A DNA stretch of 12,264 nt, taken from the UHGV virus genome UHGV-0079336; one strand, given 5' to 3'. A model generated the notes under the pieces. The model saw only the letters and a program-made list of their open reading frames with translations. It had not been told where the DNA came from and made no database searches. Made by a program: the position numbers and the translations under genes. Positions 2,543 through 12,264 of the stretch are shown here, one piece after another (the stretch's first letter is position 1; each line of letters opens with the position of its first letter). Source of the DNA: a virus.

Positions 2543-2658
2543 CCGGAGCCTGAACAACTCCGGTGACTTCTGCGCTAAACGGGGACGTTTATGCGCACAT
2601 ACAATCCAACCTATCTTCTCCATTCACAGATGCAGAAATGCACCTACGCTTTTTTACA
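2543..2658 (+). repeat. structured ~115-bp element, copy 1 (three hairpins then T6); candidate small RNA or cis-regulatory RNA
   Basis: Hairpin 1 CCGGAG/CTCCGG (2543-2563). Hairpin 2 is a 10-bp stem with GGGA loop (2572-2596). Hairpin 3 is TGCA-GAAA-TGCA (2631-2642). T6 at 2650-2655. Possible promoter TTGAAA 2507-2512 with AATATT 2531-2536. Homologous to 4950-5066. Confidence 0.45.
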
Positions 2659-2897
2659 TTCGGTGTTTTACTTCGACAGCCAGAATTGGGAGTCTCTATT
2701 CGTCTGGCGGCTAAAGGTGATATGGAAATCGTTATGTTTTGGCCTGAGGTAGTTGTAACTGTTGTAGCAGCTATGGCTGTGATCATCATGGTGTCCATTT
2801 ACTGGGGTTGACGACATGATTTATCCGGCGCTATATTCTGTGCGTTGCCGCAAAATCGGCACACGGGATTGGCGTCCCGGGATACTACTCAACGCAT

Positions 2898-2918
2898 ACC
2901 GCGTTAAGCGGTTTTTTT
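2898..2918 (+). terminator. weak intrinsic terminator candidate
   Basis: ACCGC-GTTAA-GCGGT hairpin followed by T7 (2912-2918). Confidence 0.3.
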
Positions 2919-3018
2919 GTGCGCTAAGCACGGCTATGCCCAAATTATGGTGGGCTGTGTGAGGGCTTCTTCGGAAGCGCCGGGTTTGAGTAGCCGGTTA
3001 CGCCAACCTTACACAGTT

Positions 3019-3049
3019 CACCACCAGTCGATTGGCGTCGTTGGTGGTG
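3019..3049 (+). promoter_or_regulatory. 8-bp inverted repeat upstream of Bro-N gene (possible operator or RNA hairpin)
   Basis: CACCACCA (3019-3026) and TGGTGGTG (3042-3049) separated by 15 nt, about 25 nt before the start at 3075. Confidence 0.25.
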
Positions 3050-3074
3050 ATGGTTAACCTGATGAGGTGATACT

Positions 3075-3683
3075 ATGACTACTCAATTAGCATTCCACAA
3101 AACGACGTTTACCCCGATTTGCCACAATAACAGAATTTGGCTTACTGCCACTGAAGTTGGTTTAGCACTGGAATATGCGGACGATAAAGCAGTTCAGCGC
3201 ATTTACTCTCGGCACTCAGATGAATTCACAGATATGATGACAAGGGTGGTCAAAGTGACCACCCCTCGTGGAATGCAGGAGTCTCGAGTATTTAGCCTTC
3301 GCGGAGCCCATTTGATCGCCATGTTTGCTCGTACTCCTGTGGCCAAAGAATTCCGCCGCTGGGTGCTGGATATTCTCGATCGAGAAGTTCAACAATCACC
3401 AATCACAAAACAATTCACTGATAACGAACTTTGCACACTCGCCTGGTTATGGCGAGCAAGTGATACGATGTTAATCGCCTGCCAGAACGTTACTCCACTT
3501 CTTCAGGTTGCGGAGCACCGCGAAGCCGGTCGCTTTACTTCTATCAGTCAGGAATATCCCCTGATACTCAGCAAGGCGCGAGCAATCCTTGCCAGAGAAA
3601 CGGCGCATGTAAAATTCCAACCGTGGCAGGATGATAAGTGGAGCAGGGTATTGCCACATTTGCGTCAGGCTAGATTGCAATAG
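3075..3683 (+). CDS. Bro-N/AntA-like antirepressor family protein (202 aa)
   Basis: GAGGTGA RBS at 3064-3070. N-terminal region (…NNRIWLTATEVGLALEYADDKAVQRIYSRHSDEF…) resembles the Bro-N/antirepressor N-terminal domain pattern. Assignment from recalled family pattern only. Confidence 0.6.
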   Translation: MTTQLAFHKTTFTPICHNNRIWLTATEVGLALEYADDKAVQRIYSRHSDEFTDMMTRVVKVTTPRGMQESRVFSLRGAHLIAMFARTPVAKEFRRWVLDILDREVQQSPITKQFTDNELCTLAWLWRASDTMLIACQNVTPLLQVAEHREAGRFTSISQEYPLILSKARAILARETAHVKFQPWQDDKWSRVLPHLRQARLQ

Positions 3684-4323: not shown

Positions 4324-4911
4324 ATGCAAGAAAATGAAAAGCAAGAGCAGCATGAAACTGAACCTCAGGATTTAGATTTTCCAGCAGAATTTGACTCTCT
4401 GATTAATGCAAATGGAAAGATAACACCTGCATTGCTAACGGTAGTTAACCGGTATTTTTTATATTTTTCATTCTTTGAATCACTTCTTTTGGGGTGTTCT
4501 GGAAGTCAGGGGAAGAGTTCGAAATACGCAGCGAAATTGTTGGAATTCAAATTAGTTGATCTTGACGTTCTTAAGCGAACATACTTCTTTTTTGCAGACC
4601 GTTATCTGGCAGATGTAGTGAAGTTTGAAAACCTATGTGGTGATTTAGAGCATACATCGCAGAAGGCTAGGGATGAAAAAATTAAGGCCATGCAATTAAA
4701 GACAAACGACCCTGAAATTCAGTTAGGTGTTTGTATTTTTGTTTGTTTCAGGTTGCGAAACAACCTTTTTCATGGACCAAAATGGCGTTATTTGCTTGAT
4801 GGGCAAGAGGATTTGCTCTTAATTGCCGGAAATTTTATACATTCTATTCTATTACAGGTGCCTAGTAGAGATGGCTGGGAATTCAAGAATATTTTAACTT
4901 CTACTGATTAG
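4324..4911 (+). CDS. hypothetical AT-rich cargo protein (195 aa) with HEPN-like Rx4H motif; putative RNase/abortive-infection toxin
   Basis: ORF in an AT-rich island. Contains …CFRLRNNLFHGPKW… (R-N-x-x-x-H spacing as in HEPN RNases). Poor SD, so start is uncertain. Function is inferred from the motif only. Confidence 0.5.
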   Translation: MQENEKQEQHETEPQDLDFPAEFDSLINANGKITPALLTVVNRYFLYFSFFESLLLGCSGSQGKSSKYAAKLLEFKLVDLDVLKRTYFFFADRYLADVVKFENLCGDLEHTSQKARDEKIKAMQLKTNDPEIQLGVCIFVCFRLRNNLFHGPKWRYLLDGQEDLLLIAGNFIHSILLQVPSRDGWEFKNILTSTD

Positions 4912-4949
4912 CTTTGATTTTCCATAATCAACCCGCCATAATCATGTCA

Positions 4950-5066
4950 TCGGAGCCTGAACAACTCCGGTGACTTCTGCGCTTTGAGGGGACTCAAAGT
5001 GCAAACGACAATCAGAACACCTTTCAACCAGTCACAGATGCAGAAATGCACCTGCGATTTTTTGCA
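4950..5066 (+). repeat. structured ~115-bp element, copy 2; candidate small RNA or cis-regulatory RNA just upstream of ninB
   Basis: Hairpin 1 at 4950-4970. Hairpin 2 GCGCTTTGAG-GGGA-CTCAAAGTGC at 4979-5002. TGCA-GAAA-TGCA at 5039-5050. T6 at 5058-5063. Possible promoter TTGATT 4914-4919 with CATAAT 4937-4942. Confidence 0.45.
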
Positions 5067-5096
5067 TCCAACGTTTGACCTCTGCGGAGGTGAAGC

Positions 5097-5552
5097 GTGA
5101 ACCTCCCACAAGACGGCATCAAATTACATCGCGGTAACTTCACCGCTATCGGTAAGCAGATCCAGCCTTATCTGGAGGACGGAAAATGCTTTCGCATGGT
5201 GCTTAAACCGTGGCGCGAGAGACGCAGTCTTTCCCAGAATGCACTCAGCCACATGTGGTACAGCGAAATCAGTGAGTACCTCATCAGCAGGGGGAAATCG
5301 TTCGCTACTGCAGCATGGGTAAAAGATGCTCTCAAACACACATACCTCGGTTATGAAACCAAGGACCTGGTTGATGTCGTAACCGGCGAAATCACTACGA
5401 TCCAGTCGTTACGCCATACCTCCGATCTTGATACCGGAGAGATGTATGTCTTCCTGTGTAAGGTTGAAGCCTGGGCGATGAATATTGGCTGCCACCTGAC
5501 TATTCCGCAGAGCTGCGAGTTCCAGCTGCTGCGCGACAAGCAGGAGGCGTAA
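5097..5552 (+). CDS. ninB: NinB-family recombination protein (YbcN-like, 151 aa)
   Basis: GTG start with GGAGG at 5086-5090. Translation ([15 protein letters not shown]…[18 protein letters not shown]…) matches the DLP12 YbcN/NinB family as recalled. Confidence 0.9.
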
Positions 5553-7199: not shown

Positions 7200-7368
7200 T
7201 CGTGTAAATCTGATATTTTGCCAATGTTGTACGCACTGGCAGTAATCCAAATTCAAGCTCGAGGTTTAAAGCCTTGGGCTTTTCTGTTTCTGGGCGGTGA
7301 GTATCCTTCCGACGTACCCCAGCCAGGGTGTCTTCAGCTGTTGAGTTGATATTGCTTAACCCTCTGTT

Positions 7369-10706: not shown

Positions 10707-12264
10707 GCCGGAAATCTTACCCCAACGTAAATGCTGCCAATCAGTATGCCCGTGATGTCGTGCGGGGAAAGATTGTGGCCTGCCAGTTTGTGATTCAGGC
10801 CTGCCAGCGCCATCTTGATGACCTGATGGCGGAAAAAAGTAAGTCGTTTCGTTACCGCTTCGACAAGGACCTGGCTGAACGGGCCGCCAAATTTATTCAA
10901 CTGTTGCCGCACACCAAGGGTGAGTGGGCATTTAAGAGGATGCCCATCACGCTGGAGCCGTGGCAGCTCTTTGTGATCTGCTGCGCGTTTGGCTGGGTCA
11001 ATAAAGGCTCCCGGCTGCGCCGCTTCCGTGAGGTGTATACCGAAATCCCCCGTAAGAACGGCAAATCGGCAATCTCTGCCGGTGTCGCCCTGTATTGTTT
11101 TGCCTGTGATAACGAGTTTGGCGCGGAAGTGTATTCCGGTGCCACGACAGAGAAACAGGCGTGGGAAGTCTTTCGCCCGGCGCGACTGATGTGTAAACGC
11201 ACACCCATGCTGACGGAAGCGTTCGGGATTGAGGTTAACGCCTCAAACATGAACCGTCCGGAGGATGGCGCGCGGTTTGAACCGCTGATCGGTAACCCCG
11301 GTGATGGATCATCACCCCACTGTGCGGTGGTGGATGAATATCACGAGCACGCCACCGATGCGCTTTACACCACGATGCTTACCGGGATGGGGGCGCGACG
11401 TCAGCCACTGATGTGGGCCATTACTACTGCCGGGTACAACATTGAGGGGCCGTGCTACGACAAACGGCGGGAAGTTATCGAGATGCTCAACGGTTCGGTA
11501 CCCAACGATGAACTGTTCGGGATCATCTATACCGTTGACGAAGGTGACGACTGGACCAACCCACAGGTGCTGGAAAAAGCCAACCCGAATATCGGGGTGT
11601 CGGTTTACCGTGAGTTTTTGTTAAGTCAGCAACAGCGTGCGAAAAATAACGCCCGTCTGGCAAACGTCTTTAAAACAAAACACCTCAATATCTGGGTGTC
11701 GGCGCGTTCGGCGTATTTCAACCTGGTGAGCTGGCAGAGCTGCGAGGATAAATCACTGACTCTTGAGCAATTCGAGGGGCAGCCGTGCATTCTGGCCTTT
11801 GACCTGGCGCGTAAACTGGATATGAACAGCATGGCGCGACTTTATACCCGCGAGATTGACGGTAAAACGCATTACTACAGTGTGGCCCCGCGTTTCTGGG
11901 TACCGTATGACACGGTGTACAGCGTCGAGAAAAATGAAGATCGACGGACAGCCGAACGCTTTCAGAAATGGGTGGAAATGGGCGTTCTGACCGTTACCGA
12001 TGGTGCGGAAGTGGATTATCGCTACATCCTCGAGGAGGCCAAAGCGGCGAACAAAATCAGCCCGGTCAGTGAGTCACCCATCGACCCCTTCGGGGCGACC
12101 GGGCTGTCACATGACCTTGCTGATGAAGACCTGAATCCCATCACTATCATTCAGAACTACACCAACATGTCCGACCCGATGAAAGAGCTGGAAGCGGCAA
12201 TTGAATCGGGGCGCTTTCATCATGATGGCAATCCCATCATGACCTGGTGTATCGGCAACGTGGT
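10703..12264 (+). CDS. terL: terminase large subunit, 5' partial (runs off the window end)
   Basis: Absent from the ORF track because it has no stop in the window. ATG 10703 overlaps the terS stop (ATGA). Continuous 520-codon frame to 12264 with Walker A-like EIPRKNGKS and acidic motifs (VVDEYHE). Confidence 0.9.

Follow-up and report, generated by a model that had tools for sequence, protein, structure and literature searches.

A recurrent promoter-proximal RNA leader at the cargo junctions of a lambdoid prophage, with a predicted role in control of the first nin gene

The occurrence of one short block twice in a lambdoid prophage, each time where cargo meets backbone genes, raises the question of what the block does and whether it is maintained as DNA, RNA or protein. 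The stretch analysed here (the window, 12,264 nucleotides (nt) of UHGV virus genome UHGV-0079336) covers the nin, Q and lysis genes of such a prophage, and the block, called the element below, lies at about 2543–2658 (copy 1) and 4950–5066 (copy 2), in both cases between AT-rich cargo and backbone genes. An earlier sequence-only reading had described a two-copy structured RNA at these junctions, and the repeat was recovered as described. The 33-mer CGGAGCCTGAACAACTCCGGTGACTTCTGCGCT is exact at 2544–2576 and 4951–4983, and within the second, near-identical block the 21-mer CACAGATGCAGAAATGCACCT is exact at 2625–2645 and 5033–5053; in 200 dinucleotide-preserving shuffles neither repeat found a match, even with up to three mismatches permitted. 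The start-to-start offset between the copies is 2407 nt for the 33-nt block and 2408 nt for the 21-nt block, which accounts for the spacings of 48 and 49 nt given earlier.

The explanation favoured here, with somewhat better than an even chance, is that the element is a portable sigma70 promoter followed by a structured leader with a translationally coupled leader open reading frame (ORF), and that it controls the first nin gene. Copy 1 is a diverged paralog at the head of an antirepressor module, in which hairpins 1 to 3 are kept and the coupling is lost.

The strongest evidence for an RNA comes from hairpins 1 and 2, which, like all features of the element, lie on the + strand. In copy 2, hairpin 1 (4948–4972) has an 8-base-pair (bp) stem and the conserved 9-nt loop CCUGAACAA (−9.9 kcal/mol, z = −3.6). 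It is followed by a single-stranded linker (4973–4978), part of the block (U)GACUUCUGCGC that is nearly invariant in copies preceding ninB or ybcN (alignments A3 and A5), and then by hairpin 2 (4979–5002), GCGCUUUGAG-GGGA-CUCAAAGUGC, with a 10-bp stem (−16.4 kcal/mol, z = −6.0). Hairpin 1 of copy 1 (2542–2564) has the same loop (−10.5 kcal/mol, z = −3.0), and its hairpin 2 (2572–2596) reads GCGCUAAACG-GGGA-CGUUUA(U)GCGC (−12.1 kcal/mol, z = −3.8). As first noticed from the sequence alone, the GGGA loop is kept between the copies while the stem has changed at four pairs on both strands, and at the foot of hairpin 1 the pair C2543-G of copy 1 has become U4950·G in copy 2. Folding of hairpins 1 to 3 in both copies, and of the copy 2 hairpin 4 discussed below, is more stable than that of shuffled sequences (z from −2.3 to −6).

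Comparison was extended to about 160 homologs, from phages 82, phi80 and HK639, the K-12 prophage DLP12, Enterobacter and Citrobacter prophages and E. coli genomes. A covariance model built from 28 sequences gave 108 matches that were realigned, 93 of them distinct. In these, 96.6% of the 1718 cells of hairpins 1 and 2 are paired, against 21–45% when the partner is slid by one to three columns, and 15 of the 19 pairs change on both sides, a number reached by none of 500 shuffles. Double-sided changes were seen at all nine modelled pairs of hairpin 1, and RNAalifold recovered both hairpins independently, with compensatory changes at all 13 pairs that it predicts. Several unrelated stems of 7–11 bp surround one conserved 9-nt loop, YCUGAACAM, in hairpin 1, and at least five stem types surround the same GGGA loop in hairpin 2. 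The selection on RNA structure proposed from the two copies is thus borne out by strong covariation across the roughly 93 distinct homologs. The phage 82 record (X92588) annotates orf33, a putative −35 and −10 and a 'possible regulator-binding site' that corresponds to hairpin 1; since the stems covary while the loop stays conserved, hairpin 1 is an RNA hairpin, and its interpretation as a double-stranded DNA operator was rejected.

The same comparison bears on whether the repeats are anything more than homology left by modular phage exchange, with no function of their own. The copies flank an inserted module of 2.4 kb, the two-copy layout recurs, and the types of hairpin 1, hairpin 2 and tail are found in many combinations among homologs, which indicates frequent recombination within the element. 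Exchange alone, however, does not yield compensatory stems, invariant loops, conserved promoter hexamers or a conserved start and stop geometry. As the sole explanation a recombination joint is contradicted by the covariation and is scarcely credible; it stays true as the origin of the duplication.

Towards the 3' end, part of the sequence-only reading had to be abandoned. It had taken TGCA-GAAA-TGCA followed by T6 as a terminator hairpin, and both sequences are present in each copy. In the minimum-energy fold, the T-run is instead the 3' arm of a 13-pair hairpin 3, where it pairs with AGAAA. In copy 2 this hairpin (5037–5068) reads GAUGCAGAAAUGC-ACCU-GCG-AU-UUUUUGCAUC (−12.7 kcal/mol, z = −4.1); the copy 1 version (2629–2660) is weaker, with one C·A mismatch (−5.9 kcal/mol, z = −2.3). 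T6 is the form found in the window, with TTTTCT, TTCTTT, ATATTT or GTCTTT in most homologs, and past the T-run the sequence leads unbroken to the next gene's ribosome site. The stable GC-rich hairpin with a conserved U-tract that marks an intrinsic terminator is therefore not what the element's 3' end presents, as the T-run is not conserved and serves as a hairpin arm. Across homologs 95.3% of the cells of hairpin 3 are paired, compared with 38–58% in slid controls. Seven of its pairs vary on one side only, mostly from G-C to G·U, and one shows a compensatory change from C-G to U-A. Shuffling is uninformative as a control for hairpin 3, since the 5' arm hardly varies, and the support for this hairpin is pairing compatibility, not strong covariation.

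These observations also bear on the earlier suggestion of a free-standing small RNA (sRNA) of about 110 nt ending at TGCA-GAAA-TGCA and T6. Both window copies have a promoter-like site with T6 some 110 nt downstream, and in copy 2 the scan calls a weak terminator-like TGCAG-N8-CTGCG followed by ATTTTTT. The candidate stem is only 4–5 bp, however, and its Ts pair with AGAAA in a far more stable hairpin; most homologs have other bases within the T-run, no 3' end is listed there by K-12 Term-seq, and the next gene's ribosome site lies within 30 nt and is predicted to be translationally linked. A discrete sRNA is highly improbable on these grounds. What stands of the earlier interpretation is a structured, promoter-proximal RNA resembling a cis-acting leader; what falls is the sRNA and its terminator.

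The promoter-proximal position itself is well founded. For copy 2 the promoter scan found a sigma70-type site, TTGATT-17-CATAAT (4914–4942), with a predicted start at A4949, and for copy 1 a promoter-like site, TTGAAA-18-AATATT (2507–2536), that aligns with the conserved promoter of the homologs. Sigma70-like hexamers upstream of both copies had already been noted from the sequence alone. The window, K-12 and most homologs carry TTGATT-17-CATAAT at a constant distance from hairpin 1, so that both the spacing of hexamers (within 16–18 nt) and their placement are those of a sigma70 promoter, and similarity between loci stops immediately upstream of the −35.

A palindrome, TTGAT (4914–4918)-N8-ATCAA (4927–4931), spans the −35 and spacer, with symmetrical changes at the inner positions in some loci; folded as an RNA hairpin, it would be weak (−3 kcal/mol). 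Neither candidate regulator fitted it: the half-sites are FNR-like but are spaced by N8 and not N4, and the palindrome is not LexA-like. It is absent from the pR' region of the window. In K-12 (L010, 2453–2482, minus strand) its other half can act as the −35 of a divergent promoter-like site.

The question of which gene such a leader would control leads to a feature that the sequence-only reading overlooked, a small ORF that overlaps the element and starts in hairpin 2. This is orf33 of phage 82 and ylcH in the K-12 annotation. In copy 2 it has 33 codons (4999–5100), from a GUG at 4999–5001 to a TGA at 5098–5100, and its stop overlaps, as GTGA, the GTG start (5097) of the gene at the ninB position (5097–5552, + strand). 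That gene, annotated as ybcN in K-12, encodes a 151-amino-acid protein of the YbcN family (NCBIfam PRK09741, E = 4.6e-83; weak Pfam NinB match) and opens the nin–Q operon. The loop of hairpin 2 together with its closing G gives GGGGA, which resembles a Shine-Dalgarno (SD) sequence, with an ATG or GTG in the 3' arm 5–6 nt downstream. The ATG of the commonest E. coli type of hairpin 2 exists only through a bulged U, and the GTG of the window's copy 2 type only through a G·U wobble.

Start codon, frame and stop of YlcH/orf33 are conserved in 109 of 126 distinct homologs, in the form of an ORF of 29–34 codons that runs from the 3' arm of hairpin 2 to a stop overlapping the next start (ATGA or GTGA). 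Three N-terminal and three C-terminal forms, unrelated in sequence, all preserve the frame; forms differ in length by 3 nt, and a single sequence lacks 6 nt in frame. Just 5' of the stop, hairpin 4 (5071–5098 in copy 2; −17.1 kcal/mol, z = −4.6) sequesters the GGAGG site and part of the ninB/ybcN GUG. Among 64 distinct homolog tails, which fall into three sequence forms, the downstream SD is fully paired in 57, and in 59 the pairing takes in 2–3 nt of the start codon; the mean energy is −15 kcal/mol. A stop overlapping the next start and a sequestered SD are the structural marks of a translationally coupled leader ORF, and both were found.

From this layout a mechanism may be proposed. Transcription of copy 2 would begin at the foot of hairpin 1, giving the RNA a 5'-terminal stem-loop, and hairpin 2 would then expose GGGGA in its loop whilst burying the leader start codon in its stem, so that initiation on the leader ORF would be intrinsically throttled. 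Ribosomes that did initiate would traverse hairpin 3 and stop at the overlap with the ninB/ybcN start, where, on terminating, they would melt hairpin 4 and free the ribosome site and start of ninB/ybcN for reinitiation. Given the overlapping stop and the melting of hairpin 4, translation of the first nin gene would be coupled to that of the leader ORF, and without leader translation this gene would be shut. Polarity would probably extend the effect to transcription of the operon that ends in Q. It is the act of translation, together with RNA sequence and structure, that appears to matter, and not the peptide.

Buried start sites of this kind are familiar. In the MS2 coat initiator hairpin and the hairpins that sequester the ribosome-binding sites of IS10 and IS200, burial of a start codon or SD determines the rate of initiation, and a ribosome arriving from upstream opens the next site. 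The element shares with these leaders a start codon or SD buried in a stable hairpin. It differs in belonging to another sequence family, in having two such hairpins in series, and in adding a 5' hairpin and an intra-ORF hairpin with a nearly invariant arm.

The possibility that the small protein itself is what matters, with the hairpins only tuning its synthesis, was weighed against the substitution pattern. The conservation of start, frame and stop in 109 of 126 homologs would fit such a protein, as would the near-invariance of its central 12 residues and its annotation as a coding sequence in phage 82 and K-12. The leader ORF, however, shows no excess of third-position substitutions; in every type group the three codon positions have about the same number of segregating sites (12/11/12, 17/16/21 and similar), and the ratio of synonymous to non-synonymous changes is about 1:1.6 to 1:3. 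Its N- and C-terminal thirds are swapped for unrelated sequences between types, in copies of the upstream type an in-frame stop is tolerated and the hairpin compensated, the core does not vary at its synonymous sites either, which points to constraint on the RNA, and neither the 33- nor the 53-amino-acid ORF of the two copies matched a family in Pfam or NCBIfam. A functional small protein is very unlikely in the light of these results.

Some of the same results weigh against the coupled-leader explanation as well. Promoter activity and leader-ORF translation are both predicted from sequence patterns. The even spread of substitutions over codon positions, and the finding that the +1 frame is likewise open in 78 of 91 sequences, mean that the case for the ORF rests on its start and stop geometry. 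In the 27-nt core the third-position pairwise difference is 0.05, compared with 0.35 in ybcN next to it in these loci; as synonymous sites of the core are nearly invariant too, the pattern points to constraint at the nucleotide or RNA level. The hairpin 1 loop, the linker and this core are nearly invariant, and coupling does not explain why. Among upstream-type homologs, two of six carry an in-frame TAG, with hairpin 3 restored by a matching change from C-G to U-A, and the retention of hairpins 1 to 3 despite a stop in the ORF implies a role of the RNA beyond coupling. Lastly, most transcripts from the K-12 promoter could stop just after hairpin 1.

This last point stems from published RNA data, which are sparse but agree with the coupled-leader explanation. 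The ylcH RNA has been detected in K-12 and is two-fold up under microaerobic growth (PMC8910356), and 'orphan' Term-seq 3' ends were listed for K-12 at 572349 and 572350 (+ strand) under two growth conditions (Adams et al., PMC7815308). The printed context, CCGGTGACTTCTG followed by CGC, places these ends 8–9 nt past hairpin 1, inside the linker, between GACUUCUG and the next C. Together with the predicted start, such an end would give an RNA of about 31 nt that was terminated, paused or trimmed by an exonuclease. In the DLP12 remnant of K-12 the genes upstream of the element are ybcK, ybcL and ybcM, not phage early genes.

On this evidence hairpin 1 and the linker GACUUCUG might act as a weak intrinsic terminator or as a pause site some 31 nt into the transcript. 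The local promoter would then chiefly yield a hairpin RNA of this length with the conserved loop, and expression of the nin genes would require polymerases that pass this point, whether antiterminated from pR or aided by some factor. The spacing of the ends from the hairpin 1 stem (8–9 nt, after GGUGACUUCUG and before C) is typical of hairpin-dependent termination, and the linker is nearly invariant in copies preceding ninB/ybcN. The four Us in the 8 nt after the stem are few for a terminator, however, the Term-seq read counts are low (1.6–1.9k), and exonuclease stalling 3' of a stable hairpin gives the same 3' end. An attenuator would also leave the conservation of hairpins 2 to 4 and the ORF geometry unexplained, and it complements the coupled leader more than it excludes it. 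In its own right it is considered unlikely. The poor expression that rusA reportedly shows in K-12 was counted in its favour.

The near-invariant segments raise the further question of whether another macromolecule recognises them. The invariant loop, linker and core may together offer a surface to which RNA polymerase, the ribosome or a conserved host factor binds, in which case the element would be a new cis-acting switch, such as a put-like antiterminator or an attenuator gated by a factor, a proposal to be regarded as distinctly doubtful. A refolding in which the linker UUCUGCG would pair with UGCAGAA of the core over 7 bp and so release the start codon was rejected; it lies about 11 kcal/mol above the copy 2 minimum and is at this cost not favoured without a factor.

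A more specific version is antitermination of the put type, in which RNA polymerase, once bound by hairpins 1 and 2, would become resistant to terminators, so that Q and the antirepressor, the latter beyond the isrK terminator, could be expressed independently of N. The HK022 put RNA is about 70 nt long, with two stem-loops just downstream of PL, and putL and putR act in cis as two copies per genome right after their promoters (PMC9378689). The element resembles them in its two covarying stem-loops, about 60 nt in total, immediately after the promoter, and in its two copies; the invariant loop and linker suggest recognition by a conserved macromolecule, and the leader heads two operons whose distal genes (Q and the antirepressor) lie beyond terminator-like sites. 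Several results do not agree with this. The covariance model, run with filters off against HK022 24000–40751, which holds the early and nin region, gave no match (best E = 0.9), and there is no match to the element in Rfam. Its hairpins are regular, with 6–8 unpaired nt between them, unlike the bulged and adjoining stems of put, and a part in translation initiation fully explains hairpin 2, which also serves as a ribosome site. Between ninB and Q, the window has no strong intrinsic terminator. The promoter-like site of the element lies in the nin region. This version is likewise rather improbable. HK639 is said to have antiterminator RNAs in its early operon. BLAST found one copy only of the element in HK639, in the nin region upstream of ninB, so these RNAs are not copies of it.

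Lambda nut offers another comparison, as it too has a hairpin with a conserved purine-rich loop (UGAACA in the element) beside a conserved single-stranded block in an early or delayed-early transcript. The loop of the element has 9 nt and is not a GNRA-like pentaloop, its conserved block lies 3' of the hairpin, and inspection of alignments A3 and A5 found no boxA-like block 5' of hairpin 1. The element also occurs in phages with differing N proteins or none, and in DLP12.

Closer in arrangement is the c4-icd-ant system in immI of P1 and P7, where a small ORF is reportedly coupled to the downstream gene and a block to its translation is said to shut the operon by polarity. The element shares the translational coupling of a small ORF to the next gene, here predicted, and copy 1 heads a module with C4, c4-a1b1/isrK-like RNAs and an antirepressor-like gene. 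The leader differs in matching neither C4 nor C4 targets. The isrK-like and C4 RNAs were also considered as putative trans-regulators of the leaders and were rejected, as their duplex energies are no better than those of shuffled RNAs; any trans-acting regulator of the leader stays conjectural.

The nearest records are those of phage 82 orf33 and K-12 ylcH, which belong to the same sequence family, with 93% identity to copy 1. The hexamers marked in phage 82 correspond to the present promoter and the marked repeat to hairpin 1, and orf33, which is the leader ORF, ends at orf151/ybcN. These records treat the element as a hypothetical protein plus a DNA site, and the four-hairpin RNA, its covariation and the coupling are described in no record or paper found; literature searches on ylcH, ybcN and HK639 gave nothing on the element apart from an expression table. 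An Rfam search of the whole window (cmscan, E ≤ 1) gave no match in 2500–2700 or 4900–5110, its matches elsewhere being C4, isrK, c4-a1b1, a weak isrJ and a chance S4 leader. The structured leader is thus no member of any curated RNA family.

In terms of distribution, the element is far from rare. BLAST placed it in 29 phage records, including 82, phi80, HK639, HK225, CobraSix and KO-TP1, and it occurs in 4254 of 5426 complete E. coli genomes (∼78%), including the DLP12 prophage of K-12. Pattern scans added carriers in Enterobacter, Citrobacter, Lelliottia, Trabulsiella and Shigella and in 120 viral contigs. In single-copy genomes the element lies directly upstream of the ninB-position gene. 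Beyond the window, the two-copy layout was seen in at least six loci (L004, L006, L009, L089, L090 and L174); PhiR26_1, IdasGreatGrand, E. coli strain 720632 and several viral contigs have it, and one of these, L090, matches both window copies with equal model scores. The gene 3' of the element encodes a YbcN-type or NinB-type protein and once a Q-like protein, and since two different ninB-position families and once a Q-like gene follow it, the cassette is portable.

In the Q-like case, viral contig L155, the leader (about 10942–11080) directly precedes a 271-amino-acid Q-like protein and not a ninB-type gene. Degenerate copies, of about 81% identity and with hairpin 2 and the ORF broken, were seen in DLP12-like remnants near IS200/IS5 fragments, for example in APEC O2-211 (L008, 3001–3124) and similar E. 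coli loci.

The element is therefore best described as a well-supported, undescribed and very widespread RNA leader family of a familiar mechanistic kind. It occupies the junction at which lambdoid prophages carry defence and other cargo, stands at the head of the operon whose last gene is the late-gene activator Q and, where a phage has two copies, leads an antirepressor module too. Its current annotation is 'hypothetical protein' (ylcH), with no Rfam family, and the alignments provide a well-supported seed for a new cis-regulatory RNA family. Interpretation as a leader would account for a recurrent repeat that one might otherwise take for an sRNA gene, and would offer a testable handle on how nin and Q are insulated from, or released after, cargo insertion. 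Should the doubtful alternative of a factor-recognised switch be true, then, as it heads both the Q and the antirepressor operons, it would set N-independent lytic entry in a large share of E. coli prophages.

Copy 1 has a different setting. A bulged U in its hairpin 2 makes an AUG at 2591–2593, from which its version of the leader ORF runs for 53 codons (2591–2752, + strand), uncoupled to the downstream gene and not conserved in this copy type. The module that it is predicted to drive (2723–3683, + strand) was delimited by Rfam, Pfam, the promoter scan and alignment A6. It begins, between copy 1 and an isrK-like RNA, with a hydrophobic ORF of 29 amino acids, MEIVMFWPEVVVTVVAAMAVIIMVSIYWG (2723–2811, + strand), that has a good ribosome site; an in-frame 6-nt indel among its homologs suggests a real small membrane peptide. 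A second promoter-like site (2808–2837, + strand; TTGACG-18-TATATT, 10 of 12 matches) is followed by the isrK/c4-a1b1-like RNA (2831–2918, + strand; Rfam isrK, 58.7 bits), a full-length C4 antisense RNA (2943–3028, + strand; Rfam, 74.8 bits) and the antirepressor-like gene (3075–3683, + strand; Bro-N/P22_AR_C in Pfam).

The promoter, isrK-like RNA and C4 at 2808–3028 resemble a P1 immI control unit within a lambdoid nin region. Within the antirepressor-like ORF, 3133–3153 is 90% complementary over 21 nt to 7234–7254, in the pR'-proximal transcript past Q, where a weak Rfam isrJ match (7203–7282) also lies; an antisense link between the antirepressor mRNA and a short late-promoter RNA is possible.

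As for the surrounding genes, the copy 1 module is followed by a homolog of DNA polymerase III theta, an ORF of no assigned function and then copy 2, and 3' of copy 2 lie the YbcN-family gene at the ninB position, ninE, ybcO, rusA, ylcG and an 82-type Q. The AT-rich cargo 5' of copy 1 contains two NACHT/NB-ARC-like ORFs. These are adjacent (510–2463), of 158 and 488 amino acids, with weak NB-ARC/NACHT matches. At the equivalent cargo position E. coli strain 720632 has one NACHT-domain coding sequence of 1692 nt, which suggests that the two cargo ORFs of the window may be frameshifted or differently started.

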